Below, one piece after another: positions 25,109-54,027 of a DNA stretch of 64,000 bases. Numbering within the stretch: the first letter of the stretch is position 1; every line of letters starts with the position of its first letter. The stretch is from an uncultured delta proteobacterium (GTDB lineage Bacteria > Myxococcota_A > Polyangia > Polyangiales > Polyangiaceae), in assembly GCA_963696385.1 (NCBI GenBank), contig CAVOKF010000007.1, forward strand, positions 1,216,001-1,280,000, read 5' to 3'. A program made the position numbers and the translations under genes. The notes under the pieces are model-generated. The model did not search any database. It saw only the letters and a list, made by a program, of their open reading frames with translations, and had not been told where the DNA came from.

Positions 25109-26515
25109 ATGGACCTGCTGCTGGCCCACGGCTACTTCCTCGCGGAGGATCTTCACGAGCGCGGCGTGATGAAGCCGTACCCTACGCTCGGTCTACTCTA
25201 CATCTCGGCGTACCTGAAGGCGCAAGGGCACGGCGTCGGCGTCTTCGATGCCACGTTTCAGACGCTGGCGGATTTCGACGAGCGCGTTCGCGCCGAGCGG
25301 CCGCGGGCCGTGGGCCTCTACACGAACCTGATGACGAAGTTCAACGTCCTCAAGATGATCGCCGCGTGCCGCGCCGCGGGCGCGAAGGTCGTTCTCGGCG
25401 GGCCCGAGCCTGCGATGTACGCGGAAGAATACCTCGGGCACGGCGCGGACGTCATCGTGGTCGGCGAGGGCGAGCACACGATGGCGGAGCTCGTGTCGAA
25501 GGACTTCGCCGAGTTGGCGTCGATTGCGGGGATCATCTTCCGCCGCGACGACGGAACGGTGGTGCGCAATCCAGCCCGCCCGTACATCAGCGACCTCGAT
25601 ACGCTGCCCTTTCCGGACCGCGAAGCGATCGACCTGGATCGGTACGTCCACGTGTGGCGGACCCACCACGGGATGGGGTCCGTCTCGCTCATTTGCGCGC
25701 GCGGGTGCCCGTTTCACTGTCAGTGGTGCAGCCACGCGGTATACGGAAACAGTCACCGCCGCCGCTCCCCAGCCAACGTCGTTGCGGAGCTCGAGATGCT
25801 GATGGCGCGCTACAAGCCGGATCAGATCTGGTACGCGGACGACGTGTTCACCATCCACCGCAAGTGGTTTTTCCAGTATGCGGCGCTCTTGACCGACCGC
25901 GGCCTCAAGATTCCATTCGAGTGCATTTCGCGCTCGGACTGCCTCAATGAGGAGGTGGTCCAGAAGCTCGCCGACATCGGCTGCTATCGGCTCTGGCTCG
26001 GTTCGGAGTCGGGCAGCCAACGCGTGCTCGACGCGATGCGCCGAGGCGTCAAAGTCGAGGACGTGCAAGCGAAGGCCAAGCTCCTTCAGCGCCACGGCAT
26101 CCAGGTCGGCATGTTCATCATGCTCGGTTACGATGGCGAGACCCTGCCGGACATCGAAGCGACCACCGAGCACCTCAAAGTCGCCAATCCCGACGTCTTT
26201 CTGACGACGGTCGCTTACCCGATCAAAGGGACCGGGTACTACAAGGCCGTCGAGCGACGGGTGTTGGCCCGCTCCGATTGGAATGGGACTACCGATCGCG
26301 ATCTTTCGGTCCAGGGGCGCTACTCGCCTCGCTTCTACTCGTTTGCGACCCGATGGATGGTCAACGCCGTGGCGCTGCACCGTGAATGGCAAGGGCCGCG
26401 CCGGCCCGTACCCCTCGCAAAAACGTTGGCTCATACGGTCATCGGCCGGGCCGGCATGCTCGTCACGCAGCACGAGCGCGAAGGCGCGGGCGCGGGCGCG
26501 CAAGCCCTTCGATGA
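25109..26515 (+). CDS. B12-binding domain radical SAM protein (#1)
   Basis: PTLGLLYISAYL N-terminal B12 domain, GEGE, RGCPFHCQWC, YADDVF, GSESGSQRVL. Confidence 0.92.
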   Translation: MDLLLAHGYFLAEDLHERGVMKPYPTLGLLYISAYLKAQGHGVGVFDATFQTLADFDERVRAERPRAVGLYTNLMTKFNVLKMIAACRAAGAKVVLGGPEPAMYAEEYLGHGADVIVVGEGEHTMAELVSKDFAELASIAGIIFRRDDGTVVRNPARPYISDLDTLPFPDREAIDLDRYVHVWRTHHGMGSVSLICARGCPFHCQWCSHAVYGNSHRRRSPANVVAELEMLMARYKPDQIWYADDVFTIHRKWFFQYAALLTDRGLKIPFECISRSDCLNEEVVQKLADIGCYRLWLGSESGSQRVLDAMRRGVKVEDVQAKAKLLQRHGIQVGMFIMLGYDGETLPDIEATTEHLKVANPDVFLTTVAYPIKGTGYYKAVERRVLARSDWNGTTDRDLSVQGRYSPRFYSFATRWMVNAVALHREWQGPRRPVPLAKTLAHTVIGRAGMLVTQHEREGAGAGAQALR

Positions 26516-26648
26516 GCGCCGCACGCGGAGCGGGTTCTCCGATCATCGCGTCATAAATCGGATCTCATCTCATTCACCAGCTACCGCAGGACCATCCGCA
26601 GCTCGGACGGTCTCTTTAGTTTAGCACTACTGCTGTCCAGCAGTAGTG

Positions 26649-28208
26649 TTAGTTCCGCTCCCACACTTCATCCCCATCGGAAAACGTGTGGGCCAGATGG
26701 TATCGACCGTGAATGTAGGCATTGAGCAACGTTGCCGCTCTTGCCCCCGGATCTCGCGGATTGGCTCCGTCCAGCTCCGTCGACCACAGCGTATATTTGA
26801 CTCGCCTGGTTTCCAGTTCGGATATTGCGCGTTCGGCGAACTCCGGCCGCGTCTGCGCCGTCATGCCGACGACATCCATATACGTCGGACTGCGAAGATC
26901 CAACAACACATAGTAACTCGGCCAGGTTGCGGCAAAGAAATAGTCGCTTGGAACGGTGTTTTGCGCGATCCATGCCAGCTTTTCCACGTGTAACGCGTCG
27001 CTGAGGGCGCTGCCCGCAGGTAGATCGATGCGGGTGCCGTAGTGACGGTGCATCGATCGGACATGACTCATCGCGCGGGAACCGAGGGCAAGCCAGCAAA
27101 TCCAGATGAGGCTGGTGCGCAGCCGCCGCGTTCGATCGAGCGTCCATGCCAAAAGGACAGTGCCAGGCATCGCGACCGCAAACAGTCGGAGCCAATTCGG
27201 GCTCCATAAAACCTCCGCGAGCAACGAAATACCGACAAGACAGAATAACGTAACCGCATTCCACTCCGCGCAGGGCGGATCGTGTCGATGTCGCCATGAA
27301 TAGTACAGCGCGAAGCTGTATACCGTCGGCAGAAGCGCGTAGACGAGAAGGTAAGACGCAAGCGACGGCAGTTGGTGCCAGGCGGGCGTCTCGGGGGCGA
27401 GGCTGAGAGACGACCACAGGCCGTTGTGTTCCGCCATGTGCCGCCATACATAGATGACCTGCGAACCAAAGAGTGGCCCAATCCCGACGGTGAAAAGAAA
27501 ATACGCGTTGGCGGAAAAGAGCGCCAGTAAGACTCCTCCCAGTAGAAATAGGTATTTGTCCGCGACCTGGCGGCGCCGCAGTCGTTCGCGGCGGGCCAGG
27601 TATGCAATGTAGAGGGCGAAGCCAAGCAGAGCAGCAGCACCGTGACTTTGCGTGAAAAACGAAGCCAGACCGAGCATGGCGCCGGCGCTCGCGAGTCGTG
27701 GTCTCGTCAATCGTGGTGAAAGAATGATGACAGCGCTCACGATGCCGAGCACGCTAAACCAGTGATGGGTAGGGTTCAGAGCTCTTCCGTACACGAAGAT
27801 CACGAGAAAGGCCGCTGCGATCGCCGCAAAAGCGCGCTCGGCCACGCGGCTGGCCGCGAGGTAGCAGACCACGCCGAGGGCCAAGCCAATTGCGATAACG
27901 ACCACATTGGTAACCCAAATGCGCGGCCCGAAGAGTGCGAATGCTGCGAGATAGACGAGGTCGGTTCCCGGCGGTGTGAACTGAAAGAAATCGCGGTAGG
28001 GAAGTTCGCCCTCAAGCATTCGCTTTGCGTAGGCCCAAAAGTAGACTTGATCGCCGCCCAGCAAGATCGGGGTGCCTGCAGAGACGAACGAGCACAAGCC
28101 GAGGTATCCCGTGAGCGCAATTGCAAGCGCAGAAAGGGAAAATGGACGGGGCGCCTGCCGGATGACCGTATGTGGCGGCGTCGCGGACGGAGGCGGCACT
28201 GGATTCAC
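26649..28208 (-). CDS. Multi-pass membrane protein, putative GT-C glycosyltransferase (ArnT/PMT-like)
   Basis: GDQVYF..AKRMLEGELPYRDFFQFTPPGT first loop, many TM helices, soluble C-terminus; visibly more AT-rich than flanks. Confidence 0.65.
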   Translation of the reverse strand: MNPVPPPSATPPHTVIRQAPRPFSLSALAIALTGYLGLCSFVSAGTPILLGGDQVYFWAYAKRMLEGELPYRDFFQFTPPGTDLVYLAAFALFGPRIWVTNVVVIAIGLALGVVCYLAASRVAERAFAAIAAAFLVIFVYGRALNPTHHWFSVLGIVSAVIILSPRLTRPRLASAGAMLGLASFFTQSHGAAALLGFALYIAYLARRERLRRRQVADKYLFLLGGVLLALFSANAYFLFTVGIGPLFGSQVIYVWRHMAEHNGLWSSLSLAPETPAWHQLPSLASYLLVYALLPTVYSFALYYSWRHRHDPPCAEWNAVTLFCLVGISLLAEVLWSPNWLRLFAVAMPGTVLLAWTLDRTRRLRTSLIWICWLALGSRAMSHVRSMHRHYGTRIDLPAGSALSDALHVEKLAWIAQNTVPSDYFFAATWPSYYVLLDLRSPTYMDVVGMTAQTRPEFAERAISELETRRVKYTLWSTELDGANPRDPGARAATLLNAYIHGRYHLAHTFSDGDEVWERN

Positions 28209-28305
28209 GGCATCTGGCTCAACGAAAAACCCTACGCCATATTCTCGTGGAAATCGCGCCCGATCCGGGCGTGCTGGGCGAACGGGTGGAACGTAGTATG
28301 CGCGT

Positions 28306-29200
28306 TCCGTCTTAGCGCAAACCTATCCCGACTGGGAGCTGATCGTAGCAGACGATGGCTCCGACGTTGAGACACTGAGGTTTCTGAGGGGACTTCATGA
28401 CGAGCGAATCATCGTCCTCTGGCTGTCGCATTCCGGGAATCCGGGCGCGGTTCGGAACAAAGCCATTCATCGGGCTTGGGGTCTATATCTGGCGTTCATC
28501 GATTCGGACGATGTGTGGGTGGATCGAAAATTGGAAGTTCAACTCGGACTCATGCAGTCGCGCGCGGACCGACGATGGAGCTACACGGGGATCGGCGCAG
28601 TCGATCCGGACGGAAAGTTGGCGTCGGCTCCGCGCAGCCAGTGGGCGCGCCTTGGGGACGGATCCATTATCGAAGCTTTGCTGCGATTTGATATGGGCAT
28701 TGCGACGCCCAGCGTGATGGTCGAGCGCGACCTCGTTCACGAGGTGGGCGCGTTCGACGAGCAACAACGGTATGGCGAGGATTACCAGTTGTGGTTTCGC
28801 CTGGCCTTGCGTAGCGAGGTGAGCGTCTCGCCGGAGCCGCTCGTGTACGTCCGCAACGGCCATGTCGATAGGTACACCCGCGATCGCGCGGCGGAGTACG
28901 AGGCGCGGATTAGACTTTTCGGCACCATGGGAGAGATTATCCCTCGTGGACGGCTGCTAAGCACTTTGTCGGAGGAGACGCGCAGAGACCGTGCTTGAGC
29001 TTGCCGGGGCGGTACTTCGATAGAGGGGCGCACGGGGCGGTCTCGCGATTGCTGTTCAAGACGTCACGCTTCGCGTGGCTGTATCCTTGGTGGTGCTGGG
29101 GTGCCCTCAAGGCCACCCTTTAGATTCATCGTTCCGTCACGCGCACTGCTCGGCTACCGACGTCGCCGGAGAGAGCGCAGAGGACCCGTACAAGATGCCG
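28306..29200 (+). pseudogene. 5'-truncated, frameshifted family 2 glycosyltransferase (paralog of 36542-37504)
   Basis: Reads SVLAQTYPDWELIVADDGSD..GNPGAVRN..LAFIDSDDVW from 28306 after an in-frame TAG at 28294; C-terminal similarity (YFDRG..SRFAWLYPWW) continues through further frameshifts at about 28960-29120; end approximate. Confidence 0.75.
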
Positions 29201-29285: not shown

Positions 29286-30389
29286 ATGGCTCGAGCACCG
29301 GGTGAACGACTGGCCGAGCGTGCGATCCGTCGCGTCGTAGCCGCTTTCGACGGGTCGAGGCTGGCCAGCAACGCCTTGGTCCAGCTCAATGTGCGAACTC
29401 ACCGCACCTGGGCACTGCCGATCTTGCTCTATGCGCCCACTTCGCGCTGCAACTCGCGATGCGTCTCCTGCGACTATTGGAAAACGGATGGATCGACCGA
29501 TCTGGGTCGGGACGAGGTCGCCGCCCTATGCCGCGAGCTGACCGGGCTTCGCACAAGGCTCGTGGTCTTCACGGGAGGCGAGCCGCTCGTGCGCGAGGAC
29601 GTTTTCGAGCTCGCGGACTTGTTTCGTGCGCAGGGCGTGGCGTTACACCTTTTGACCAGCGGGCTTGCCCTCGAGCGCCATGCCGAGGCGGTCGTGGAGC
29701 GCTTTGCGGCCGTCACGATCTCACTCGACGGGCATACGCGCGATTTGTACCGCCGCATCCGCGGAGTCGAAGGTCTCGAGGCCGTCGAGCGCGGCGTGCG
29801 CCGCTTGAAACGGCTACGGCCCACCCTACCCGTCCGGGCGCGTTCGACGCTGCATCAGCGAAACTTCCGGGCCCTGCCGGATCTTATCGACAAGGCGGCT
29901 TCCATGGGCCTCGACCAGATCTCGTTTCTCGCCGCCGATGTCGCTTCCGATGCGTTCGGCCGGGGCCTCTTGCCCGCGGCGCCGAACCCCCACGGGCTCC
30001 TGCTCAATCGCGACGAGGTGGACGAGTTCGAGAAAGTGATCGAGAAGGCGCTGCTCAGTCACGCGCAAGCGTTTCGACAAGGGCGGGTGGCGGAGCGCGG
30101 GGACCGGCTCCGCAGGCTCGCTCGCTATTACCGTGCCCAACAAGAGCGGGGCCCGTTTCCCCAGGTTCACTGCAACGCGCCGTGGGCCAGTGCAGTCGTG
30201 GAGGCCGATGGAGCGGTGCGGCCGTGTTTTTTCCAACCACGGGTGGGAAGCCTGCGAAAAAATAGCCTACGCGCAATTCTCAACGACGAAATGGTGCGTT
30301 TCCGTCGTAAGCTGGATGTCTCTCGGGATGCTACGTGCGAGCGATGTGTGTGCTCGCTGCGGGTCGGGATGAGGTCGCGGTTATGGTGA
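29286..30389 (+). CDS. Radical SAM protein with SPASM/twitch-type C-terminal domain
   Basis: CNSRCVSC, FTGGEPL, ISLDG, CNAPW..EADGAVRPCFF..CERCVC; start uncertain. Confidence 0.88.
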   Translation: MARAPGERLAERAIRRVVAAFDGSRLASNALVQLNVRTHRTWALPILLYAPTSRCNSRCVSCDYWKTDGSTDLGRDEVAALCRELTGLRTRLVVFTGGEPLVREDVFELADLFRAQGVALHLLTSGLALERHAEAVVERFAAVTISLDGHTRDLYRRIRGVEGLEAVERGVRRLKRLRPTLPVRARSTLHQRNFRALPDLIDKAASMGLDQISFLAADVASDAFGRGLLPAAPNPHGLLLNRDEVDEFEKVIEKALLSHAQAFRQGRVAERGDRLRRLARYYRAQQERGPFPQVHCNAPWASAVVEADGAVRPCFFQPRVGSLRKNSLRAILNDEMVRFRRKLDVSRDATCERCVCSLRVGMRSRLW

Positions 30390-30399: not shown

Positions 30400-31942
30400 A
30401 TGAAGCACGTTCCGTGGCTTCCGTGGCTCCTCACCACGCTCGCCGTCGCGATGTTGCTCGCGCGTTGGCTTCGGGTTCGACGGTACCGCGGGCTGTTTCG
30501 AATTCCGGTGCGACGGGACGATTCCTTGCTCTGCCGAGGTAACGACGGAACGCTCTCGGTCTCGGCGAACCACGACGGCTTCGAAATGCCGGCCGGTGTG
30601 GTGGCTCGCGGGCAGACTGCGTTTTTGGCGTTGCAGGTTTCGACCACGCCCGTGGGTGGTTACGTGGACCCCTTCATCGAGGTCTGGCAGGGCAGTCGGA
30701 GGTACCGGCAGTATTTCGAGCGAGGCGCGACCGGTTGGCGTCACTTGAACCTGTCGCCACTCTTCCAGAACGGGATCGAAGCCGGGTTCGGACGCGTCCA
30801 CCTTCGGGGCGGCTCGATCCGCTGGAAGAGGGAGGCCACCTTAAGAATCTTCGAATCCACCTCCAGTCGGGAACGCCGTGATTTTGGTCTTGGCGCCCCA
30901 TCCAGACGACGCCGAGATTGCGGCTTTCGGGCTCTATGCGGGCCGGCGCTCCTGGGTCGCCACGATCACCGCGGGCGAGTGCGGAATGGGGGACCTCTCG
31001 GCGGTGGCGCCTGGCCAGTCGAACGCGGCGCGCTGGAAGGCGCTCTTGCGCGTGTGGGACAGTTTGACCATCCCACAGCTGGGCGACGTGCCGCCAGACC
31101 GATGTCTCAATCTCGTCTACCCGGATGGCCAGCTGCAATCTCTCTTGCGCCGTGCCCCCCCTTCCGCCACGCTGGCGTGTGAGAAAAGTCTCTCTCGCAC
31201 TGCGCTCCGCGCGCGCAACCAGGCATCCGCGTTTCGAGCTGCAGGTCCCGCGTGCTCGTGGGAAGGCCTGGTCGAAGACCTTCGACGGTTGCTCGAGATG
31301 GCCAAGCCCGACATCGTCGTGTGCCCCCATCCGATCGTCGACGCCCACCACGACCACGTCTTCACCACGGTGGCGCTCGAACAGGCGATTCGCCGAACGA
31401 CACTGCATAGCACGCTCTTTTTTCTTTACGTCGTTCATCGAATCGATGCGCCCCTGCACCCCGTGGGGCCCAACACGAGCTGGGTGTCGTTTCCACCGTG
31501 GACCGAGCACGAATGGCTGGCCGATTCCATCTACTCGCATCCGCTCGCGCCCGAGGTGCAACGCGCGAAGTACTTCGCCGTCGAGGCGATGCACGATTTA
31601 CGAACGTTCTCGGTCGCCGAGCCCAAGGGACTGGGACGGGTTCTTCGGGCCGTAATCCGAGAGCTCTTGGCGTGGGGTGCTGGCACCGGGCTTCCCGCGA
31701 CCAGTTACTTGCGTCGGGCACCGCGCCCCAATGAGATCTACGGCGTCGTGTCCGCGAGCTCGCTTTCGGAGTTGGTCCAGCGAGCCCTCGACCGGCCCCC
31801 GCGGATCGACACTGAGATCGCGGCGGAGGCCCCATGGCTCCATTGGCTCGCGAGCCGCGCTCGGCGCATTGTACACCGCGGTCGGCCCGCAAAGCACCTC
31901 GCTCCGGAGAAGGCGCAATCGAGTCGCGTCGCAGAGCTATGA
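30400..31942 (+). CDS. PIG-L family deacetylase with N-terminal membrane anchor (DnpA-like), frameshifted near 30856
   Basis: TM N-terminus and RQYFERGATGWRHLNLS in one frame; LVLAPHPDDAEIAAFG, YPDG, PHPIVDAHHDH in the next frame. Confidence 0.75.
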
Positions 31943-32039
31943 CGCTAAGCCCGACACGTGACGCTGATTCTCGGTATCCCATCCCGCGAGTCGATGGTCG
32001 CAAGGGCATTGACGGGTTATCGCACGCTGGTGCGAGCTT

Positions 32040-32282
32040 GCCCGTGGCGCCAAACGGCTCCTTGGTGAATTCCGCGTCGAGCAGGTTCCACATCTCCGGA
32101 ACGCCTTCGCACAGAAGCATCACCTTGAGATCGGGGCGCTTCGCCAGCAGTTCCATAACGTCGGCGGCCATGCCCTCGCACAATCCCGCGGGGTCACCGG
32201 CCGCCATCGTCCCGTAACGGATTGTATAGAGGGACTCCCCATTCTTGTCGTGGAGCGTGACCGTCCGCAGTACGCCATCCGG
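32040..32282 (-). mobile_element. Transposase fragment (ISKra4/UPF0236-like)
   Basis: Reads RMAYC(fs)TVTLHDKNGESLYTIRYGTMAAGD..RPDLKVMLLCEGVPEMWNLL; family assigned from recalled motif resemblance. Confidence 0.5.
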
Positions 32283-32284
32283 GT

Positions 32285-32410
32285 AGACCTCACCAGGGGA
32301 TCGGTCAGCTCATCGCGCTCGGCTCGGCAACCTCCGTGAGGGGCGGCCGCAACGTCGTGGCCGCTCCCGTGCTCGGCGGTCTCCGCCACGATTATCACCG
32401 CGCGGGGTGA
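32285..32410 (+). mobile_element. C-terminal remnant of an integrase-core-domain IS transposase
   Basis: RPHQGIGQ...VVAAPVLGGLRHDYHRAG-stop, matching the RPHQ..LGGLHHxY C-terminus of such proteins. Confidence 0.65.
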
Positions 32411-33604: not shown

Positions 33605-34048
33605 TTCGTGGTCCCTTCCGCTTCGGACGCTGCCCACAGGGCGCTCTGACTCTAGCCGCTCCAGGCAAGGGGTGGCGATCTTATTCCGCATCCACACCGA
33701 GAGGGGGCGTGACCCTATGCACGTCTGGTTAAGGCACTGGCAACTTGGAAACGCTTGGGCGAAAAGATAAGGGCGTTGGGTCGGCGGGTGCAGGGCGGGT
33801 CCCTAACTAAGCGGCCCCCCGCGTAGCGCGTCGAACCGCGCGAGTCGCAAATCACGCGACGGATGTCGGCGGCGCTGGGGTCGCTGACGTACGACGCAGG
33901 CGCTCGCTGAGTCACGACGCGGTCGGCCGGGCGCCTACATCGGGGCCATCGGCACCCCGGGGCCTTCGGCGTCAAGGGAGGCTCGATGCTCCGGAGTGCG
34001 TGGACGCGGCGGGTCGTGACGACGCGATGATCGGCGCCGCCGCTCCCA

Positions 34049-44897: not shown

Positions 44898-46757
44898 TCA
44901 CGGGGCCCTCTCCAGAATCGCTCGAGCGTTGCGGGTGATCGCGCTCTTTGCGGGCCCCTGCGCAAGGCGCGCAAGATGGTCCCGATCCGCCCGCGCTGCT
45001 CCGACGTCCCCTTCTTGGATGGATGCCTGCGCTCGAAGATCAAGAGCCTCAGGATAGTCCTCTAGAAGTCCGATCGCCTGATCGGCGGCCCATCGTGCGG
45101 CCGCAGGGTCCTTCAACGCGAGCTCGGCGGCCGACAGGGCGGCCCATGCGTTGGCCGAATACGGCTCCAGTGCACGGACCTGCTCCGCGGCATGCACGGA
45201 AGCCGCTGGGCGTCCCGCGCGGAGCAGCAGCTGGGCGGTGAGCAGGCGCGCCGTGAAGTCGTTGGGCGTGGCCTCGAGGGCACACTTCAGCGCAGCGAGT
45301 CCTTGTTCGGCTCCCGCGGGTCCGCGGTCTGCCCGAATGCTGCGTTCGGCCCGACCCACCCACCAACTGCCGCGCACGGCTCGCTCGGCCCGGACGGCGG
45401 CGCAGGCCACGAGGACCACGCCGAGCACAACGACCATGGCACCGCCGACGCGGCCCTTGCGGCGCACGGTCCGATCCGGCACGGCGACGGCGACGAGACC
45501 GAGGGCCAACCCGGCCAGACACAGCGTGCCCGGCATCTCGAGAGGGAAACTGGATAGCGACATCACGCCCAGGGCCACGAGCCCACCCGCCGCGGCCGCT
45601 GTGCACGCGCGCCCGTCCGCATCGGCCGTCCGCAGCGAACGGCGCACGGAAGCCGCCACCGCACCGACCCAACAAAGGAGTGCAGTCAGCCCGACCATAC
45701 CGGTCTCCGCGGCCCGCTCGAGCAGATCGTTGTGGGCTTGCCGCGGCACCACCGTGGGGCTGAGTACGCCATCGCGCATCGCGCCAGGCTCCGCGTAACG
45801 CGGAAAGACGACGGGCCAGTTGCCTGGCCCGACACCGACGAGGGGATCCTCGCCCACCATCGACAGCGTGCGCCGCCACAAGCCGAGGCGCGTTCTTACG
45901 GCCGTCGATTGCGCGTCGACGCTCTCCTGCAGCACCTCGACGACGCCCTCGTACCGTTTGGAGTCGCCCGCGTCGCGGGGATTGAAACGGCCCGGCAGCG
46001 TCGCCGCCATCCCCGCCACGAGCCCCACGCCGATCGCGACGGCGACCGACGACCACGACAGCCGTATCCGGGCCAGCCACAGGAACACGCCGAGACCACA
46101 CGCTGCGCCGAGCCACGCACCGCGCGTCCGGGTCACGGCCAAATACACAATCTGGAGCGCGAGCGACGTCCAGAGGACCCTGCGAAGGCCTCGCGGCCGA
46201 CATCGCACCGCCGCACCTACGCCGAGGGGCAGTGCCATGGCGATGGCTTCGGCGGCCAGGTTCCGGTTGCCGAACGTCGATCCGGGCTTGCTGATGACGG
46301 GGATGCCGAGCGGCATCCACTCGACGTGCTGCAGGAGCCCCGTGGCCGCGACGACCGCGGCCGCGATGGCGATGGCCTCGAGCACGCGCTGGCGTGCCGC
46401 AGGCGCATCACTCAGAACGCTCACGCCGCAGGCAATCCCAAAGAGCGACCCCCACCGCGCCAGCGCCGCGAGGGCGTAAGGGGCCCCCGGAGTTCCGGCG
46501 GCAGCGGCGGCCCACGCCAGTGCCGTCGTGGCAAGCACCCCGATCACCGCTGCGGTCATGGGCCCAGTCCAGCGAGGGCGGCCCGTGAAAAAACGCTGAA
46601 GGGCGAATGCGAAGAAACCGAGCGACGCGGCCACCTCGAGTGCAGCGAACTTCGGCACGAGGAAGGGCGCGTGCAACGCGGGCGAGTAAAGCAAGAGGAC
46701 CAGAAAAGCCGCAGCGCCGCTCGCCAACGCCGCGAGCCCCGTAGGCCACGTCCTCAC
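44898..46757 (-). CDS. O-antigen ligase/Wzy_C family protein with C-terminal TPRs (possible O-oligosaccharyltransferase)
   Basis: STFGNRN, TRTRGAWL, RLGLWR..PLVGVGPGNW, AHNDLLERAAETG; TPR helices. Confidence 0.8.
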   Translation of the reverse strand: MRTWPTGLAALASGAAAFLVLLLYSPALHAPFLVPKFAALEVAASLGFFAFALQRFFTGRPRWTGPMTAAVIGVLATTALAWAAAAAGTPGAPYALAALARWGSLFGIACGVSVLSDAPAARQRVLEAIAIAAAVVAATGLLQHVEWMPLGIPVISKPGSTFGNRNLAAEAIAMALPLGVGAAVRCRPRGLRRVLWTSLALQIVYLAVTRTRGAWLGAACGLGVFLWLARIRLSWSSVAVAIGVGLVAGMAATLPGRFNPRDAGDSKRYEGVVEVLQESVDAQSTAVRTRLGLWRRTLSMVGEDPLVGVGPGNWPVVFPRYAEPGAMRDGVLSPTVVPRQAHNDLLERAAETGMVGLTALLCWVGAVAASVRRSLRTADADGRACTAAAAGGLVALGVMSLSSFPLEMPGTLCLAGLALGLVAVAVPDRTVRRKGRVGGAMVVVLGVVLVACAAVRAERAVRGSWWVGRAERSIRADRGPAGAEQGLAALKCALEATPNDFTARLLTAQLLLRAGRPAASVHAAEQVRALEPYSANAWAALSAAELALKDPAAARWAADQAIGLLEDYPEALDLRAQASIQEGDVGAARADRDHLARLAQGPAKSAITRNARAILERAP

Positions 46758-48910
46758 GGCCCGGCCGGAGCCGGATCGCCCGGCCTCGGTTGCGAATCGG
46801 AGGCCGCCCCCCGCGCGCGCAGTTCGTCCAGGCGCGCCGCAAAGCGGTCCATGACGCGCTGCCGGTGGTCGGACAGATGCAGCTTGAGGATGCCGGCGCC
46901 GAGAATCACGTCCCCGCTGATCGCCGCCGCGGCGCGGCGCCGAAGGTGAAAGCGCCAACCCCAGCGAAGGATCGTTTCGAGCGCGGGCGCGATGGGTCCG
47001 AGCGCCCTCTCCCCGAAGGGTCGCCGTGCGACCCGCGGCGGGTCACCCGCCCCCGCCAGGGCCGATTCGGACGCGGAGTAAGCGGCTCGCGGGGCGAATG
47101 CCGGGAAGAAGGGCCGAACCCACTCCTCGTTGCTGCGGCACAAGGCCTCGTAGGTCTCATGACCCGTGAACGGCAGGGCGGACACGAGCTGATGCGCCGT
47201 GAAGAGGTCGCGGTGATAGGCGATGGTCAGCTCGCTCTCGTCGACCAAATAGTTCGGGCAGATGAGCCGCCGGGTGCTCGTCAGCTTGGTGGCGAGAAAG
47301 AGCGCCGCATAGGCCGTATACGCTCGCCCGCGTGCCGTGACCACGAAGAAGTCCACGTCTGGCCGCGCGCCCGGGTTCTTGTGCGCAACTCCCCCCGACA
47401 CGATGAGGGCGCGAACGAAGGGCAACGCGGCGAGCGAGGACAAAGCCGCGCGGTTGCGCTCGAGAAGGGTCCGGGTGAGCGCCTCCCTCTCGGGCATCGC
47501 GTCCACGAGGGGCTCGCGGCCCTTCAGGACGAGGTAACCCCTCGGATCGAACGTGAGAAGTGCCGTGAGGGCCCGGCCCGCCGAGATTCGACGCAGCTCG
47601 GACTCGTCGAGCCGAACGCCGAGCGACGCCGTCAATGCCTGATGGATGGGCAGCGGCGAGTCGAAGATGTCCGCGTACACGACGGTGGCGAGCAGTCCCC
47701 ACTCGGCTGTGCTGAATCCGGGCGGCACGGGGACCAACGGCGGTGGAATGACCGTCTTGCCGGATCCCGTGATCGGGGAGCCGTTCGAGCGGGGTCGCAC
47801 CCGCTCCGGAGCAATCCGTCGGGCTCGTGCCCAGAGGGCCTCGGCGGTGCGCGTCCAGGAGAAATGCTGCGCGCGAAGGGGGCCGGCGGCGCGCATGCGG
47901 GCAAGGCCGTCGGGGTCGCTCAAGAGCTCCGAGAGGGCTCGCGAGAACGCCGCATCGTCGCCGGGCGGCACGAAACGCGGGACGTCACCGCCGACTTCGC
48001 GCAAGGCCGCGACATCGGAAGCGATCACCCCTGTCCCACACGCCATGGCCTCCAGGATGGGCAGCCCGAAGCCCTCCAGCCGGGCGGCGAAGACGAACAG
48101 ATCGGCACCCGTATAGAGCGTAACGAGGTCCGGCTCGGTCACGTAGCCGAGCCAGTGGACGCGTCGGCCGGCTGTCCGGGCCTCGAGCGTGCGTACGAGC
48201 GTGCAATCTTTCCAGCCGCGACCGCCCGCGACGACGAGGTCGTGGCCCTGTGCTTCGGGCCCCAGGCGATCGAAGGCGCGCAAAATGGTGATCAGATCCT
48301 TGCGCGGTTCGAGGGTCCCCACCGTGAGCACGTACGGCCGCGTCAGCCCGTACCGGGCGCGGACGTCGGCCACGACGTCGAGGCTTGCGGGGCGACACGA
48401 CGGATGCGCGGCCCCGGGCAAAAGCGCGATGCGCTCGCGACGGACGCCGAGCAAACTGAGGATGTCGCGCTCCGACGTTTCGGAAACCGTTCCGATGACC
48501 GACGAGGCGGCAACCGACTGCCTCAATGTCGCGGCCATCAGCAGACGCTTGCGCATCGTGAAGTGCTCCGGCATGCGCAAGATCGCCAGGTCATGCACGA
48601 TCAGGATGCTTGGGCACGGCGACGCGAACGGCACGGCGTAGTTCGGAAAGACTCCCACGTCGACGCCCGTCTCGGCCAAGAGGCGCGGGGCGTCGGTTTG
48701 GATCCACAGCGCGCGTACCCCTACGCCGCGAACGTGAAGGTACGGCGCCCAGCGCGTCGCCAGATCGGGCGCCGGCTGGCGGTTCGACAAGAGCACCACC
48801 TCGTCGCCCGCGCGACGCGTCTGGAGCAGCGCGTCGACGAGGTGCTCCGTATAGTATCCGACCCCCGTGCGCGTGGCATTGCAGGTCGTGACTTCGATGG
48901 ATAGTCTCAC
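46754..48910 (-). CDS. GT4 glycosyltransferase fused to a nucleotidyltransferase-like domain
   Basis: GT4: TGVGYY, VHDLA, VGTLEPRKD, EGFGLPILEAMACG, FSW. C-terminal part: YADIFDSPL, SGGVAHKN..PDVDFFVV, CPNY, DLFTAHQL. Confidence 0.8.
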   Translation of the reverse strand: MRLSIEVTTCNATRTGVGYYTEHLVDALLQTRRAGDEVVLLSNRQPAPDLATRWAPYLHVRGVGVRALWIQTDAPRLLAETGVDVGVFPNYAVPFASPCPSILIVHDLAILRMPEHFTMRKRLLMAATLRQSVAASSVIGTVSETSERDILSLLGVRRERIALLPGAAHPSCRPASLDVVADVRARYGLTRPYVLTVGTLEPRKDLITILRAFDRLGPEAQGHDLVVAGGRGWKDCTLVRTLEARTAGRRVHWLGYVTEPDLVTLYTGADLFVFAARLEGFGLPILEAMACGTGVIASDVAALREVGGDVPRFVPPGDDAAFSRALSELLSDPDGLARMRAAGPLRAQHFSWTRTAEALWARARRIAPERVRPRSNGSPITGSGKTVIPPPLVPVPPGFSTAEWGLLATVVYADIFDSPLPIHQALTASLGVRLDESELRRISAGRALTALLTFDPRGYLVLKGREPLVDAMPEREALTRTLLERNRAALSSLAALPFVRALIVSGGVAHKNPGARPDVDFFVVTARGRAYTAYAALFLATKLTSTRRLICPNYLVDESELTIAYHRDLFTAHQLVSALPFTGHETYEALCRSNEEWVRPFFPAFAPRAAYSASESALAGAGDPPRVARRPFGERALGPIAPALETILRWGWRFHLRRRAAAAISGDVILGAGILKLHLSDHRQRVMDRFAARLDELRARGAASDSQPRPGDPAPAGP

Positions 48911-48991: not shown

Positions 48992-50815
48992 ATGCTGGCC
49001 GAACAAGCGACGAGCGCGCGCGATCCGTTCTTGATCCGCCTGGCTCGAGGCCTGCTGGTCGCTCTCGCCCTCGTGCTTCCGTTCGAGGCACCGCTCTTTC
49101 GCCTCGGGCCCCTGCAGATCACGACGGTCGAGCTCGTGCTCTACGCCCTGCTCGCCGCGTGGGCCGTCGCGTTGGCGTCCGATGGGATCGGACATCGCGC
49201 GGCCGTGTCCAAGGCCATGGCGGCGCTCCGCACGGACACGATGGTCCAGGCGGCGATCGTCTGGGCGACGGTCAACTTTGCATCCGCCCTGGTGGCTCCC
49301 TCGTACCGAAGCGCGGCGCTCAAGTTCGCGCTGCGAACCTTGAGCGGCGTGCTCGCGTTTTTCGCTGTCCGCTCTCTGGCTCGCCGTTCGGACACCGGCC
49401 GGGTTCTGATCCTCGCGCTGTTGTCGGGTGCCCTGGTGTCGGCGACCACCGCGGTGGTCGAGTCGCTCGTGCCGGCCAGTGCGTCGCTCTGGGAGCCATT
49501 TCGTGCCGGGCACTTCACGACCTTCGGTTTGATGCGAGCGAGCGGCGTCTTCGCGTATCCGACAATCGGGGCCATGTACTGGGAGGCGGCGGTGCCGCTG
49601 CTGGTCGTCGCGCCGTTTCTCGGCAAGCGACCGCGCTCCGAACGGCGTGCGTGGGGCGGCGCAGTATCCGTCGTGCTGGGCAGCGCCCTGCTCGTCGGGG
49701 CCATTCTTGCCAGCGCGACGCGTTCCGCACTCGTCGGCGCCGCGGTAGTCGCTGCGGCCATGGGCGGCCTCGGCTTGAGATCCGGGGTCGCGATCCCGCG
49801 CGCCGCCACCGGCGCTCTGGCCGTCGTCGCGCTGCTGTCGGCGATTCCGCTCGTGACCCCAGGCTCCGACTCGCTGCTCGGTCAAAGGCTGCGTTGGTGG
49901 CACGACGACACCTGGTTTCGCGCCGACTACAGGGTCGGTACCGCACCGCATGCGGTCTCCTTTGGGGAGGTCTTCTCCGTTCCGGTCACGGTCACCAATA
50001 CGGGCACGCTCGGCTGGACGCGGGCAGGGGCCCACGCCTTCCACCTCGCATACCACTGGGTAGAACCCGATGGCTCCATGTCGCCCGAGGATTTCGAGGG
50101 AATGCGCACCGAACTGCCGGCGGACGTGCCACCGGGCGGCGCGATCGAAATCGTCGGTCGAGCGCGGGCGCCCGCCACGGCGGGGACCTACCGGCTGCGC
50201 TGGGACCTCCTGCAGGATGACGTGACCTGGTTTAGCCAACGGGGCAATCCGATGCCCGAGCAACAGGTCGACGTGACGGCCGAAGCGACCGAAGTGGCCA
50301 CCGAGAACGAAGGACGGCCTGCCGCATCGTCGGTCGACGTCGCAAGCCCCGATCCGTCTCTACCGCGCAGGGTGCTGTGGCGAGCCGCCGTCGCCCTTTG
50401 GCGCACCCGACCGCTGCTGGGCGTTGGCCCCGACAACTTCCGGCGCCGCTACGGGGCCGTGCTCTCGCCTGCCCCGAACGGCCAGTCCGACGCGGACACG
50501 AGCATCCACGCCAACAGCCTCTACTTTGAAACGCTCGCCGACCTTGGGCTCGCGGGTGTGGCGGCGCTAGCCCTGATCGGCTTGGGCCTCGTGCGGCGGG
50601 TGCGGGCTCACCATTCGGCGAACGGCCTTTCGGGCCTCGCCTCCGGCGTGGCGGCCGGGGCTTTCTTCGTGCACGGATGGCTCGACTACTTCTGGGAATT
50701 CACACCGCTTTTTGGCCTATTCTGGGTGCTGTTGGGATGGACGGCAGCAACGACTGCGACGCAACCGTCAGCCGAAGCGCTCCGAGGCAGCACGCCGTCA
50801 GGGCAAGCTCCGTGA
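48992..50815 (+). CDS. O-antigen ligase/Wzy_C family protein with an inserted Ig-like domain
   Basis: RASGVFAYP, SATRSAL, insert VTVTNTGTLGW..LAYHW..APATAGTYRLRWDL..WFS, then PLLGVGPDNF, HANSLYFETLADLG. Confidence 0.78.
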   Translation: MLAEQATSARDPFLIRLARGLLVALALVLPFEAPLFRLGPLQITTVELVLYALLAAWAVALASDGIGHRAAVSKAMAALRTDTMVQAAIVWATVNFASALVAPSYRSAALKFALRTLSGVLAFFAVRSLARRSDTGRVLILALLSGALVSATTAVVESLVPASASLWEPFRAGHFTTFGLMRASGVFAYPTIGAMYWEAAVPLLVVAPFLGKRPRSERRAWGGAVSVVLGSALLVGAILASATRSALVGAAVVAAAMGGLGLRSGVAIPRAATGALAVVALLSAIPLVTPGSDSLLGQRLRWWHDDTWFRADYRVGTAPHAVSFGEVFSVPVTVTNTGTLGWTRAGAHAFHLAYHWVEPDGSMSPEDFEGMRTELPADVPPGGAIEIVGRARAPATAGTYRLRWDLLQDDVTWFSQRGNPMPEQQVDVTAEATEVATENEGRPAASSVDVASPDPSLPRRVLWRAAVALWRTRPLLGVGPDNFRRRYGAVLSPAPNGQSDADTSIHANSLYFETLADLGLAGVAALALIGLGLVRRVRAHHSANGLSGLASGVAAGAFFVHGWLDYFWEFTPLFGLFWVLLGWTAATTATQPSAEALRGSTPSGQAP

Positions 50816-52028
50816 GGACGGTCGCCCACGCCGCGCCGGGCCCATGGGCCCGTGGAATGAGGGCGAGGTCGAGGAGGACGTTGAGCACGAGCATCGCCAG
50901 AGCCAACCGTTGGGTCATCGTACCCATGTCCCGGGCCACCAAGAAGTGCGTGAGGCCGTAGTTCAGAAAAAGCAGGGGCATCCCCAACGCGAGTACGCGC
51001 ATCGAAGGGACGGCTCGGCCAAAGCCCGTGCCGAAGACCCCCCGGATGAGAGGCGTCCCGCCCACGAAACACGTCGCTCCGACCAAGAGGCCGAGTCCGA
51101 GCAGCAAGAGGCCGATCTGCCGCTCGAGGCGGCGCTGGATCGGGGGATGGCCATGCGCGCGCGCGAGCTGCGGGAACGTGACCGATAGAAGCACCGACGG
51201 CAGGATCATCGCCCCCTCGAAGATCTTGAACGCGGCTCCGTACAGTCCGAGTTCGGCGTCCCCAGCCATCGAGCGCAAGAACAGAGTGTCGATTTTGAAA
51301 TAGAGCATCGAGCAAAGCCCGGCAAACCAGAGCGGCAACGCCTGGGCGAGCGCCGCTTTGGCCAGCACCCGATCGAGCTTCGGGCGCTCGATCCGCACCT
51401 GTCTCGCGAACGGATGCAGCCGTCGCAAGACCACCGCGCCGTAGAGACCCCCTCCCAGATTCGCCGCGGCAATGCTGCTGCACAAGCCGATGAGCGATCG
51501 AGCCACCGTGAGGGTGGTCAATCCGGCGACGCCAAACAAGAGCGCCCGGAATGCGTTGACCCGCGCTTCGTCCCCGAAGCGTTCGTAACCGCGGAAAATC
51601 GCGGCGAAATGCTCGAGGAACGCATTGACGAGGGCCGCGATGCCCAGCAGGATTATGGCTGCGCGTGCCTCGCCGCGCGCTGCGAACATCGCCACGGCCA
51701 GTACGGCGACCGCGTACGGGAGCGCAGCGAGGCTTCGGATGGCCAGCCCGACTTGGACGATTCCCCGGCCTGCGAGCAACTGCGCGTCGCTGTCGACCCG
51801 GCACCGCGCCAATGCGCGTGTCGTCCATACGCCGAGCCCGAGGTCCGTGCCGAGCGCGAGCAGGGCCGTTACCGTCGAAGCGAAGACGAACCGGCCAAAT
51901 GCGGCCTCGCCGAGCACAGGCGCCACGGCAACCACCACGACCAGTCGGCAGACCCGTTCGAGGCCGATGGAGAGGGCCTTGAGCGAAAGGTTTCGGATCG
52001 CTCCGCCCAGCATGCGGCCCGGCGCCAT
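50700..52028 (-). CDS. Wzx-type oligosaccharide flippase
   Basis: Many TM segments; LGEAAFGRF, DLGL, LYFKIDTLFL..ELGLYGAA, FPQLAR, LNVLLDLALIP..GAAWAT. Confidence 0.88.
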   Translation of the reverse strand: MAPGRMLGGAIRNLSLKALSIGLERVCRLVVVVAVAPVLGEAAFGRFVFASTVTALLALGTDLGLGVWTTRALARCRVDSDAQLLAGRGIVQVGLAIRSLAALPYAVAVLAVAMFAARGEARAAIILLGIAALVNAFLEHFAAIFRGYERFGDEARVNAFRALLFGVAGLTTLTVARSLIGLCSSIAAANLGGGLYGAVVLRRLHPFARQVRIERPKLDRVLAKAALAQALPLWFAGLCSMLYFKIDTLFLRSMAGDAELGLYGAAFKIFEGAMILPSVLLSVTFPQLARAHGHPPIQRRLERQIGLLLLGLGLLVGATCFVGGTPLIRGVFGTGFGRAVPSMRVLALGMPLLFLNYGLTHFLVARDMGTMTQRLALAMLVLNVLLDLALIPRAHGPGAAWATVLTELALTACCLGALRLTVASQSLLPSIPTAPRIGQKAV

Positions 52029-52035
52029 CCTGCGT

Positions 52036-54027
52036 TCAGCCTCGAAGCTCCCGAAGCGTGTCGCGCAAGACCGCCGAACCTGTGCGTGCGAGGATTCGAG
52101 CGTCCAGTGCAAGGCTCCATTCGCGCAGGTACTGGAGATCCAAACGCAGCCGCTCGGCGATGGACGACTTGTCCCCACGCAGGCCGTTCACCTGAGCCCA
52201 TCCCGTGATCCCCGGTCGCATCAGATGGCGAGTGCGGAAGCCGGGCAGGTCCCGTTCGATGCGCGCGACACGCTCGGGCATCTCGGGGCGCGGGCCGATG
52301 AGGCTCATCTGCCCTTTGAGCACGTTCCACAATTGGGGCAGCTCGTCGAGGCCCAGGGGCCGCAACACGCCACCCACACGCGTCACCCGGCCCCGACCAT
52401 CCATCGTGCGCAGCTTGACCAACGTAAAGGGGCGTTGGTGGAGGCCCGTACGACGCTGATAAAAGAGCGCTGGCCCGGGCGATTCGAGTCGGATGAGAGT
52501 CGCCATGGCGGCCATGAACGGTGCGGTGAGCGCGAGCCCGGAGGCCGCCACCGTGACGTCCACGAACCGCTTCACGGCCCGGCCAGCCCAGGGGTGGCTG
52601 TCCACGCGGCGCCGCGTCGTCGAGGGGTCGGTCCCGTTGTCCGGCGCGATCGGGTTGTCCGGCGCGATCGGGTTGTCCGGCGCGATCGGGTGACCCGGCT
52701 CGATCGGGTGACCCGGCTCGATCGGGTGACCCGGCTCGATCGGGTGACCCGGCTCGATCGGGTGACCCGGCTCGATCGCGTCATCCGGCGCCGTCGGCCT
52801 GTCCGGCGCGGTCCCATCGGCCGCACGTACCGTCCGAGCGAAGGCCGCAGCACTCATGACTCCGCTCCCATTGTGACCGTCGCTTTTCTGCGCGTTTCGA
52901 CGGGCGCGCCGCGCGTCCTCCACGGCTTCGGCGAATCTTCGTTCGAAGTGCCCGCGGTCAAAGCGCTTCGCGAAAGCCTGGAGCCGGGCTGGATCGAACG
53001 AGTGCTGCACACGCGCGAACCGGTCCAGGGCTTGCCGGACCGCCGCCACAGTCGGCGTCTCGATGAGCAGACCCGTCTCTCCGTCACGAACGATTTCGAG
53101 CGCTCCGCCTTCGGCGACTGCGATCACCGGCTTTCCCGCCGACAGAGCCTCGGCCATCACCATGCCGAAGTCGTCGACCCCGGTATGCAAAAGGGCTCGC
53201 GAGTTCGCGCAGAGCGCGTCGAGCTTGGCCTCGTCCACGCGCGGCAGCAGCGTCACATTCGGACCTGCGAGCCGTTCGAGTCGTGCACGCTCGGGCCCTT
53301 CACCGACCACGACGAGCCGCTCCACACGTCCCTGAAATGCGCGCAAAGCAAGATCGACCCGCTTGCTTGGAACGAGCGCCGATACCAAAAGAAACGGTGC
53401 CTCGCCGTCGACGGGAGCGGCACGCGCCGCGGCGCGCTCGAAACGGCAGGTATCGATCGGCGGCTCGATCACGAGCGCGTCGCGCTGGTAATAGCGCTGG
53501 ATCCGGTCGCGTGTGTACGCGCTGTTGGCAATCAAGACGTGGGGCCGCGCTGCAGCCACCGCCTCCCAGCGGCGCAAATAATGTGCCGTGCTCCGAAACG
53601 CGGCGCGCCCGAGCCTCCCCGCCGGCACACGAGCCTCGTAGGCTGGCTGCGCCTCCCGCACGTAGCGGATCGTCGAATGGAGATACGCGACGTGCACGGC
53701 CGAGGGCCGTGCGATGGCGCCCATCGCGACGCAATGGCTGCTCGAGACGACCAAGGCGTACGGGGCAAGATTGAAAGACTCCACGGCGAGCGGAAAGAGC
53801 GGCAGGAGCGCCCGGAAACGCCCGCTGACAAATGGGGCCCTCGCCACGCGATCGATCGGTGAGGTCGTGGCCCGTCGCTCGGCGAGTGCCGGCGACAGGC
53901 CCGCTGCGTTCCGCGTGAGAGTAAAGATATGCGCCTGCGGGAACACTCCGCAGAGCACCTCGAGAACACGCTCACCACCCCTCATGGTCGTGAGCCAATC
54001 GTGAACGATAGCCACGGACTCGTGCAT
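52036..54027 (-). CDS. GT4 glycosyltransferase fused to a bacterial sugar (priming phosphoglycosyl) transferase domain
   Basis: GT4: HDWLTTMRGGERVL, SSSHCVA, DDFGMVMAEAL. C-terminal part: KRFVD, PGPALFYQRRTG, KLRTM, LDELPQLWNVLKGQMSLIGPRPE. Confidence 0.85.
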   Translation of the reverse strand: MHESVAIVHDWLTTMRGGERVLEVLCGVFPQAHIFTLTRNAAGLSPALAERRATTSPIDRVARAPFVSGRFRALLPLFPLAVESFNLAPYALVVSSSHCVAMGAIARPSAVHVAYLHSTIRYVREAQPAYEARVPAGRLGRAAFRSTAHYLRRWEAVAAARPHVLIANSAYTRDRIQRYYQRDALVIEPPIDTCRFERAAARAAPVDGEAPFLLVSALVPSKRVDLALRAFQGRVERLVVVGEGPERARLERLAGPNVTLLPRVDEAKLDALCANSRALLHTGVDDFGMVMAEALSAGKPVIAVAEGGALEIVRDGETGLLIETPTVAAVRQALDRFARVQHSFDPARLQAFAKRFDRGHFERRFAEAVEDARRARRNAQKSDGHNGSGVMSAAAFARTVRAADGTAPDRPTAPDDAIEPGHPIEPGHPIEPGHPIEPGHPIEPGHPIAPDNPIAPDNPIAPDNGTDPSTTRRRVDSHPWAGRAVKRFVDVTVAASGLALTAPFMAAMATLIRLESPGPALFYQRRTGLHQRPFTLVKLRTMDGRGRVTRVGGVLRPLGLDELPQLWNVLKGQMSLIGPRPEMPERVARIERDLPGFRTRHLMRPGITGWAQVNGLRGDKSSIAERLRLDLQYLREWSLALDARILARTGSAVLRDTLRELRG
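52636..52813. repeat. 18-bp in-frame tandem repeat in the interdomain linker
   Basis: 3x GTTGTCCGGCGCGATCGG, 5x GTGACCCGGCTCGATCG(G) and 2 degenerate units; encodes (IEPGHP)5(IAPDN[PG])3. Confidence 0.92.

Follow-up and report, generated by a model that had tools for sequence, protein, structure and literature searches.

The window analysed here is a stretch of 64,000 nucleotides (contig C7, positions 1216001-1280000) from the 6.9 Mb, 96% complete genome of an uncultured member of the Polyangia, and the nine sequencing runs that contain at least half of it bear the labels soil, peat or plain metagenome. Positions 25109 to 54027 hold a locus in which four radical S-adenosylmethionine (SAM) enzymes, three of them of the B12-binding class B (rA, rB and rC) and one with a SPASM/twitch domain, lie together with four methyltransferases, a PIG-L de-N-acetylase, several glycosyltransferases (GTs) and the Wzx, Wzy_C and priming-transferase genes of surface-glycan assembly (Table 1). 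Between rC and the gene for the Wzy_C protein WzyC1 lies a 43-codon open reading frame (ORF), overlooked in the initial annotation, whose product is a small lipoprotein and a candidate acceptor for the glycan.

Gene identities were taken from a Pfam scan of the window proteins and from translation. Most of the initial annotation was upheld in this way: the three B12-type radical SAM enzymes with intact CxxxCxxC motifs, the SPASM-type enzyme, all four methyltransferases, the PIG-L protein, GT2, three GT4s, Wzx, two Wzy_C proteins and the priming transferase are all present. The GT-C labels fared worse, coming down to topology alone for two genes and to a sub-threshold PMT_2 match for the third. 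In the same-genus genome G670, the block is retained in identical order at 80-97% identity, except for the GT-C-like genes, and the clustering is therefore not a matter of chance; the membrane protein at 26649, the truncated GT2 and the split gene at 32454 are missing from that block.

Table 1. Features of the locus (positions in the window), with their supporting evidence and remarks.
Feature	Position	Strand	Evidence and remarks
rA: B12-binding (class B) radical SAM enzyme	25109-26515	+	Pfam; paralog of rC; optional cassette member
Membrane protein, GT-C-like from topology alone	26649-28208	-	Pfam: no match; strain-level
5'-truncated GT2, probable pseudogene	28297-28998	+	Start and N-terminus missing; relative of the GT2 at 36542
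Radical SAM enzyme with SPASM/twitch domain	29286-30389	+	Pfam; five conserved C-terminal Cys
Membrane-anchored PIG-L de-N-acetylase	30400-31942	+	Pfam; split by one surplus assembly base near 30854
Probable transposase remnant	32034-32309	-	Pfam: no match; resemblance presumed by us
Split membrane protein, GT-C-like from topology alone	32454-33697	-	Pfam: no match; strain-level
Probable GT-C glycosyltransferase	34049-35782	-	PMT_2 sub-threshold, E 0.008; position differs among strains
FkbM-family methyltransferase	35751-36545	-	Pfam; TIGR01444 above cut-off
GT2 glycosyltransferase	36542-37504	-	Pfam
rB: class B radical SAM enzyme, separate family	37529-39070	-	Pfam; fold model; invariant Met68
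GT4a: cassette-specific GT4	39129-40424	-	Pfam; E-x7-E intact
MT1: class I SAM methyltransferase, core partner of rC	40340-41158	-	Pfam
HemK-like methyltransferase	41294-42016	+	Pfam, NCBIfam; NPP[YF]-type motif
MT3: zinc ribbon and class I methyltransferase	42068-43037	-	Split by one surplus assembly base near 42578
rC: class B radical SAM enzyme	43193-44707	+	Pfam; of the radical SAM enzymes, the one kept with the glycan-assembly block in Polyangia
43-residue lipoprotein, candidate glycan acceptor	44743-44874	+	Shine-Dalgarno sequence, lipoprotein signal, Ser/Thr/Asp-rich tail
WzyC1: Wzy_C protein (O-antigen-ligase/oligosaccharyltransferase type), C-terminal TPR-like region	44898-46742	-	Conserved Arg, His
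GT4 fused to winged helix and pol-beta-type nucleotidyltransferase	46754-48898	-	Pfam (GT4); fold (nucleotidyltransferase); SG...DxD
WzyC2: Wzy_C protein with inserted Ig-like (NBR1-type) domain	48992-50815	+	Conserved His
Wzx flippase	50700-52028	-	PF01943
GT4 fused to polyprenyl-phosphate priming glycosyl-1-phosphate transferase	52036-54027	-	Pfam, NCBIfam

The 43-codon ORF is preceded by a Shine-Dalgarno sequence and encodes a lipoprotein signal followed by a 21-residue tail rich in Ser, Thr and Asp. The tail ends in P-D-[AS]-M-[TS]-x-x, which places Ser41 at position -3 of the window copy. The gene is single-copy in its own genome, and the same-genus genome G225 carries an ortholog in the equivalent place. 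The peptide was then followed through 80 metagenome loci around rC, 61 of which contained an rC of at least 55% identity and sufficient downstream DNA. Scanning placed it downstream of rC in 50 of these, and a profile search added six more, two behind rC and four behind a divergent rA, for a total of 56; the downstream DNA available for the remaining five held none. The 45 distinct tails have a median length of 22 residues and carry Thr (38) or Ser (4) at -3, i.e., a hydroxyl residue in 42 of 45, with Met at -4 in 23, Asp at -6 in 28 and Pro at -7 in 25. The end motif is found in 33 of the 45 tails, where shuffling gave 3.3 on average and 9 at most, a contrast that overstates the effect because the tails are related. 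For the N-x-[ST] sequon there is no enrichment (15 of 45 tails against 18.6), and for D[ST][AILVMT], the Bacteroidetes-type sequon, no clear one (17 of 45 tails; shuffles averaged 11.4 and reached 20 at most).

One set of 351 Polyangia genomes was used for both the rC and the peptide searches. rC was detected in 22 genomes, and strong peptide matches (E 1.5e-10 or better, followed by a gap to 2.3e-7) in 23, namely the 22 rC carriers and G781; weak matches in 17 further genomes lie nearly all at the starts of long ORFs. Within the main family, the peptide accompanies rC in 20/20 carriers and is found in 1/39 other genomes, and rC occurs in 5/301 genomes of the window's own order. In G781 the peptide stands beside WzyC2, the priming transferase, a GT4, WzyC1 and the nucleotidyltransferase. 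One contig of an RNA run, with a depth of 46, begins at 44735, beside the Shine-Dalgarno sequence of the peptide, and the other pieces of that run have depths of 2-9; as strand, start and level cannot be read from contigs, this is only a weak hint that the lipoprotein may be highly expressed.

Nine Polyangia genomes, each read across 40 kb, demonstrate how the locus is built. The GT4-nucleotidyltransferase, WzyC1, WzyC2, Wzx, priming transferase, GT4, rC and the peptide occur together in all nine, and rB, the SPASM enzyme and rA each lie inside the 40-kb span in two. In five of the nine (78-89% complete), rB was located elsewhere in two genomes, the SPASM enzyme in one and rA in none; in G225 the two gene sets are on separate contigs. 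The locus is thus composed of two separable modules, the assembly block with rC and the peptide (module I) and a variable tailoring set (module II). The nucleotidyltransferase is fused to the GT4 in the window and in G225. Of 17 loci with both this domain and rC, 12 have the two no more than 1.5 kb apart, and S117, G118, D130 and D132 of the nucleotidyltransferase are invariant in 19 sequences. Its window copy has no Pfam match, and the domain suspected in the initial annotation is supported by a weak Polbeta match in a homolog, its Atlas neighbours and a fold match to ANT(4') (Z 8.6, root-mean-square deviation 3.5, 113 aligned residues; Foldseek matches all at E >= 0.03). The hG[GS]...DxD motif together with the fold places it in the pol-beta nucleotidyltransferase superfamily. 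Conserved residues and motifs are likewise retained elsewhere: Arg and His in both Wzy_C proteins, E-x7-E in the GT4s and NPP[YF] in the HemK-like enzyme. WzyC2 scores 29 bits for Wzy_C alone and 48.1 bits, above the cut-off, with its neighbouring segments. Three carriers hold five Wzy_C matches each against two in each of two same-genus non-carriers, which marks the Wzy_C proteins of the window as accessory.

Outside this group, a scan of species genomes with rB returned at least 607 stretches, at least 458 of them relatives, of which the best 80 loci were analysed; within the phylum, rB is present in 19/301 genomes. The titles of these 80 loci name Acidobacteriota, Bacteroidota, Chloroflexota, Gemmatimonadota, Ignavibacteria and Alphaproteobacteria, among others. 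Hidden Markov models (HMMs) built from the 80 loci themselves recognized rC in 57, MT1 in 55, SPASM and MT3 in 45 each, a BioC-like methyltransferase in 42, an amidohydrolase in 38, rA in 35, two further B12-type radical SAM families in 27, GT4a and an HprK-like kinase in 22 each, the window-type nucleotidyltransferase in 18, and NTP_transf_5 and HemK in 17 each. Full flanks were available for 46 loci, or 39 after leaving out seven in which rB is the sole cassette radical SAM enzyme. A GT or assembly gene is present in 27 of the 39 compared with 17 of 317 control windows from the window's own genome, and an assembly gene, generic ABC transporters left out, in 19 of the 39 compared with 2 of 317; since the HMMs derive from the cassette loci, this control is biased towards low values. 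The two nucleotidyltransferase types are mutually exclusive, the winged-helix pol-beta type being found in 16/39, NTP_transf_5 in 12/39 and both in 0/39. The co-conservation of radical SAM and glycan genes anticipated in the initial annotation is borne out by the 27 of 39 loci and by the nine of nine Polyangia genomes with rC and the assembly block. The reading given there is thus supported, with two qualifications: the locus consists of two separable modules and not of a single pathway, and Terriglobia-type loci lack the GT4s and usually assembly genes.

The cassette is common in the genus Mucilaginibacter, where rB is carried by 75 of 121 genomes, one of them unpublished (G307). In 20 of the 75 carriers, picked for long contigs, the loci were read gene by gene: rC, MT1, the BioC-like enzyme and the amidohydrolase occur throughout (20/20), GT4a, a second GT4 and the nucleotidyltransferase in 19/20, SPASM and Wzy_C in 18/20, and an ABC exporter at the start of the locus in 17/20. 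Two loci that were scanned further contain more GT4, GT2 and Wzx genes downstream. This distribution bears on a first alternative, a tailored O-antigen or cell-surface polysaccharide for which one Wzy_C protein would be the polymerase and the other would ligate the product to lipid A-core or to a different lipid, with the lipoprotein as a structural or regulatory passenger. A priming transferase, Wzx and two Wzy_C proteins make up the classic set for such a product, and in Mucilaginibacter and other phyla the cassette stands beside Wzy_C or Wzx genes without such a peptide; Chloroflexota carriers (L068) have Wzy_C too. We nevertheless consider it unlikely, as it leaves unexplained both the hydroxyl residue at -3 and the complete co-occurrence of the peptide with rC in 22 of 22 genomes; moreover, additional Wzy_C genes lie elsewhere in the genome, and neither a chain-length regulator nor any of the Wzz, Wzc and Wza families was found among the window proteins scanned with Pfam.

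A second alternative is a small molecule, either diffusible or bound to lipid, such as a nucleotidylated or nucleoside-derived compound; the glycan genes would then be secondary partners in some lineages. The cross-phylum core of SAM enzymes, amidohydrolase and one of two exclusive nucleotidyltransferases fits this idea, as does the ABC exporter that opens the Mucilaginibacter loci. The amidohydrolase has the deaminase-type pattern HxH...HxxE...H...D and is read as a clean-up enzyme for the by-products 5'-deoxyadenosine and S-adenosylhomocysteine. It was not found in the window's own genome, and G225 has an MtaD/DadD-like enzyme in its stead; the amidohydrolase is therefore dispensable. This, together with the GT4-nucleotidyltransferase fusion and the constant Wzx/Wzy_C synteny in Polyangia, makes the small molecule distinctly unlikely in our view, even with the loci that have no glycan genes nearby, which are counted below.

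rA and rC are paralogs with 37% identity, and rB forms a separate family at 26%; all three exceed the Pfam cut-offs for both PF02310 and PF04055. By NCBIfam curated score cut-offs, none of the four radical SAM enzymes belongs to a named family. The best scores against their cut-offs are 149/481 (BchE), 142/750 (ApyD) and 131/578 (HpnJ) for rA and 81/578 (HpnJ) for rB; rC scores 87/360 (ladderane) and 27/606 (MiaB), and the SPASM protein reaches 73/400 (ScmE). All scores for the BchE, HpnJ, HpnR, PhpK, SD1168, ApyD, MiaB and AprD4 models are below one third of the cut-off, and the SPASM protein falls short of the cut-offs of ScmE, NirJ, BlsE, HpnH and PqqE. The enzymes thus stand apart from BchE and MiaB, two of the families named in the initial annotation as potentially at odds with its reading; for the third, HpnP, no model of that name was among the matches. 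Searches of PDB sequences returned distant matches alone, and rB had no match in a plasmid collection.

These scores also bear on the tailoring of hopanoids or other membrane lipids. Such a pathway would share the logic of HpnI, HpnK and HpnJ, i.e., GT, deacetylase and class B radical SAM enzyme, as set out in the available text of PMC13459092. The Atlas neighbours of the SPASM protein include an HpnH-type DUF3463 cluster, and the window's own genome contains a full-length squalene-hopene-cyclase-like gene (G000:C8:421160-423103) scoring about half of the TIGR01507 cut-off. We regard this alternative as extremely improbable and hopanoids as largely refuted: a squalene-hopene cyclase above the cut-off is found in 0/5 carriers, the Bacteroidota G301 and G305 are without any match, HpnJ scores are 81-131 against 578, and HpnH scores are 32-49 against 225 for three of the four SPASM homologs listed.

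The GG and GE motifs are retained in rA and rB. The rB model (predicted local distance difference test 86.8) has the Rossmann and TIM architecture common to TsrM, MgmA, AprD4, OxsB, TokK and CysS, which it matches in structure comparison at only 13-19% identity. Its invariant Met68 aligns with OxsB Asn186 and TsrM Arg69, so that the position under cobalt would be Met in rB, in contrast to Asn in OxsB, Arg in TsrM and a nearby Trp in TokK (motifs as given in the available text of PMC13331322 and PMC9204698). The serial methylases TokK, ThnK, CysS, PctJ and Swb9 have a Trp two residues past the Cys loop (C-x-W), a motif predicted in the case of PctJ (PMC9204698, available text). It is absent from our enzymes, where the corresponding residues are SH or SR in rA (33/33), AK in rC (48/48) and AV, GV, AI or GI in rB (84/84). 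Given this absence, Met68 of rB and the degenerate GG motif of rC, single methylation or rearrangement by rA, rB and rC appears more likely than iterative alkylation. The available text of PMC9407657 was the source of no usable motif. MetH is above the cut-off in 5/5 carriers, and B12 is therefore in use in these organisms; rA, rB and rC are putatively cobalamin-dependent.

Considering these patterns, we hypothesize, at about an even chance of being right, that the two modules serve one product, a short glycan tailored by radical and SAM chemistry and placed on the 43-residue lipopeptide by an O-linking oligosaccharyltransferase. In module I, the priming transferase would transfer a sugar-1-phosphate to undecaprenyl phosphate, the two GT4s would extend the lipid-linked sugar, the fused nucleotidyltransferase would add or activate a phospho-linked substituent, and rC would carry out one radical step. 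Module II (rB, rA, the SPASM enzyme, four methyltransferases, PIG-L, GT2 and GT4a) would add further sugars modified by de-N-acetylation, N/O-methylation, for which the HemK-like enzyme may supply the N-methylation, and radical C-methylation; a ring contraction of the HpnJ/Cds kind is also possible. Wzx would flip the glycan once it is built and tailored in the cytoplasm, a Wzy_C protein would transfer it to the Thr or Ser at -3 of the lipoprotein (Ser41 here), and the second Wzy_C protein might polymerise the unit or serve a second acceptor. The heavily methylated or rearranged sugar envisaged in the initial annotation would fit this scheme, and of the lipid-linked glycan, glycolipid or glycoprotein left open there, the evidence now favours the glycoprotein, for which a candidate acceptor can be named.

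A broader claim, which we put forward only tentatively and with some doubt, is that the locus makes a new class of surface molecule, in which a lipid-anchored peptide of about 22 residues is purely the scaffold for a radical-made glycan with C-methylated or ring-contracted sugars and a nucleotidyl or phospho substituent. It would be produced by a cross-phylum cassette with up to five B12-type radical SAM enzymes, and from lineage to lineage this cassette would exchange its activation and acceptor modules: winged helix-turn-helix nucleotidyltransferase, Wzy_C and lipopeptide in Polyangia versus HprK-like kinase and NTP_transf_5 in Acidobacteriota.

Several observations weigh against the acceptor hypothesis. 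The rC-peptide co-occurrence counts are not independent because the genomes are kin, 20 of the 22 belonging to one family. The peptide was found by neither scan nor profile in any non-Polyangia locus, and its role as acceptor therefore cannot be general. Neither Wzy_C protein reaches a named oligosaccharyltransferase model of NCBIfam, and a PDB search with WzyC1 gave chance or TPR matches and no ligase. Seven of the 46 full-flank loci, six of them from Chloroflexota, have rB without another cassette radical SAM enzyme. No GT or assembly gene lies nearby in 12 of the 39 loci, nine of them from Acidobacteriota, which is a point in favour of a small molecule, and GT4a was not found in 5/5 Terriglobia-type genomes in a search run without a positive control. 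On the enzymatic side, the GG motif of rC is degenerate (GS 24/48, GG 1/48) and cobS is above the cut-off in 0/5 carriers; cobalamin binding is not secure for these two reasons, and with MetH present and cobS below the cut-off, the carriers would salvage B12. The hydroxyl at -3 also differs from the last residue modified by TfpM and TfpO (PMC9829042, available text).

The placement of the peptide gene, always directly behind rC or rA and never behind a Wzy_C gene, fits a direct substrate of these enzymes as well. It thus lends itself to a further alternative, a product resembling peptides synthesised by ribosomes and modified after translation (RiPPs), in which the B12 radical SAM enzymes, the SPASM enzyme and an N-methyltransferase would modify residues of the lipopeptide itself, as PoyB and PoyC do in polytheonamide; glycosylation might or might not follow. 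The conserved C-terminal core of the peptide agrees with this, and ApyD, a RiPP methylase model, is the second-best NCBIfam match of rA, albeit at the score far below its cut-off given above. The rC orthologs of other phyla have no such peptide nearby, and L202 and L207 hold rC-MT1, with neither the Wzy block nor the peptide in the available DNA. G781 retains the peptide and the Wzy block, and rC was not found there; that genome is 91% complete in 540 contigs, and this fragmentation also tells against the acceptor hypothesis. We judge the RiPP-like product very unlikely. A complex prediction of rC with the 43-residue precursor (score 0.00, mark 0.32, controls not folded) was used neither way.

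Some features of the locus and its surroundings deserve separate mention. The surplus base in the PIG-L gene is absent from the contigs of 3/3 DNA runs compared, and that in MT3 is absent in X2 (two contigs) and X1, with X8 listing no difference there; X1 carries a further one-base insertion within MT3. The orthologs of both genes in G225 are single ORFs, and both frameshifts look like assembly errors. A transglutaminase-like gene (21024-23501) and an RND transporter gene (55259-58430) change frame too, probably through further assembly indels. The comparison of sequencing runs lists no indel for the truncated GT2 or for the break in the gene at 32454, which is also absent from the L192 block. 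Homologs of the membrane protein at 26649 adjoin some Terriglobia cassettes. The PIG-L protein presumably resembles Pseudomonas DnpA. The linker between the GT4 and the priming transferase (window 53200-53400) is a tandem six-residue repeat rich in Pro, His and Ile; this fusion is kept in G225, and in other Polyangia there is a gap, or the genes are separate. Secreted carbohydrate-active enzymes identified by Pfam flank the locus: a rhamnogalacturonan lyase-like protein (6169-8283), GH26 (23635-25017) and GH2 (61511-63943). GH26 and other lipoproteins of the genome start with Ser/Gly-rich linkers resembling the tail of the 43-residue lipoprotein, and on account of these linkers they could be further acceptors.

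The cassette also varies among the other carriers. In five other Myxococcota loci (L025, L027, L029, L033, L034), rB and MT1 or an MT1-SPASM fusion lie beside an invasin/Big_1 surface protein of about 1040 residues, possibly a third acceptor type; GT genes were not among the matches there. Terriglobia-type loci (L045-L057, L069, L074, L089) have a BioC-like methyltransferase-amidohydrolase fusion and up to five B12 radical SAM genes in a row with the HprK-like kinase and NTP_transf_5, often near GT87, cytochrome c and cupredoxin-like genes. Some Bacteroidota cassettes (L102, L103, L107, L108, L112) contain an extra NodB deacetylase, a GNAT protein and a protein without Pfam match, which we take to resemble a flavin reductase, and L042 and L062 combine the cassette with a carbamoyltransferase. 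The Chloroflexota loci L065, L067, L070, L081, L085 and L099 hold rB homologs without the remaining cassette within about 10 kb.

At least five B12-type radical SAM families (rA, rB, rC and two in Acidobacteriota), with thousands of homologs, are without an assigned reaction. Characterised class B enzymes act mostly on antibiotics, cofactors, lipids and peptides, and a role in cell-surface glycans would be a new setting for them. The tiny lipoprotein narrows the question of the product to one short peptide and one hydroxyl residue, and an internal sequon of seven residues that comes with a transferase of its own, if real, would be of interest for glycoengineering. Since the cassette is common in culturable Mucilaginibacter, these ideas are testable now. 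No literature on the cassette or the peptide was apparent in open-access papers, judged mostly by titles and the beginnings of abstracts, supplements excluded.

Known systems offer partial parallels. LicD/fukutin, the O-methyl phosphoramidate of Campylobacter and the lasso-peptide pair PsmK/PsmN may be analogies. In pactamycin biosynthesis, PtmG is a PIG-L deacetylase. That pathway (PtmJ, PtmG, PtmC, PtmH/L/M, PtmD) resembles the locus in applying a GT, several radical SAM enzymes including B12-type methylases and a SAM methyltransferase to a ring derived from N-acetylglucosamine, as described in the available text of PMC9092360 and PMC9204698; pactamycin, however, is a secreted antibiotic built on an acyl carrier protein, and the likeness is one of toolkit. 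MoeK5, GenK and GenD1 are class B enzymes that C-methylate sugar-containing products, moenomycin and gentamicin (PMC9204698, available text), but they come from actinomycete antibiotic pathways and are compared with rA, rB and rC by description only. For HpnI/HpnK/HpnJ (bacteriohopanetetrol cyclitol ether) and Cds (calditol synthase), a radical SAM enzyme is proposed to contract a lipid-attached hexose ring after de-N-acetylation (PMC13459092 and PMC9092360, available text). Our locus differs in remaining below the HpnJ cut-off and in its Wzx/Wzy_C export, and Cds is likened by description.

A parallel in organization is the pilin glycosylation by TfpM, TfpO and PglS, where a Wzy_C protein with a conserved His is found beside a dedicated secreted acceptor with a C-terminal Thr/Ser motif. 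TfpM requires this His for activity, and TfpM and TfpO glycosylate the C-terminal residue of the acceptor (all from the available text of PMC9829042). Their acceptors are pilins or ComP, in contrast to the lipopeptide of about 22 residues here, which is accompanied by two Wzy_C proteins that reach no named oligosaccharyltransferase model and by a glycan pathway of its own that includes tailoring by radical SAM enzymes. We are evenly divided on whether the system works in the way that TfpM and TfpO do with pilins; with a different acceptor and site, it would be a counterpart and not a member of that group. The locus itself is real, and it may represent a new variant in which O-glycosylation of a dedicated acceptor is joined to radical chemistry.

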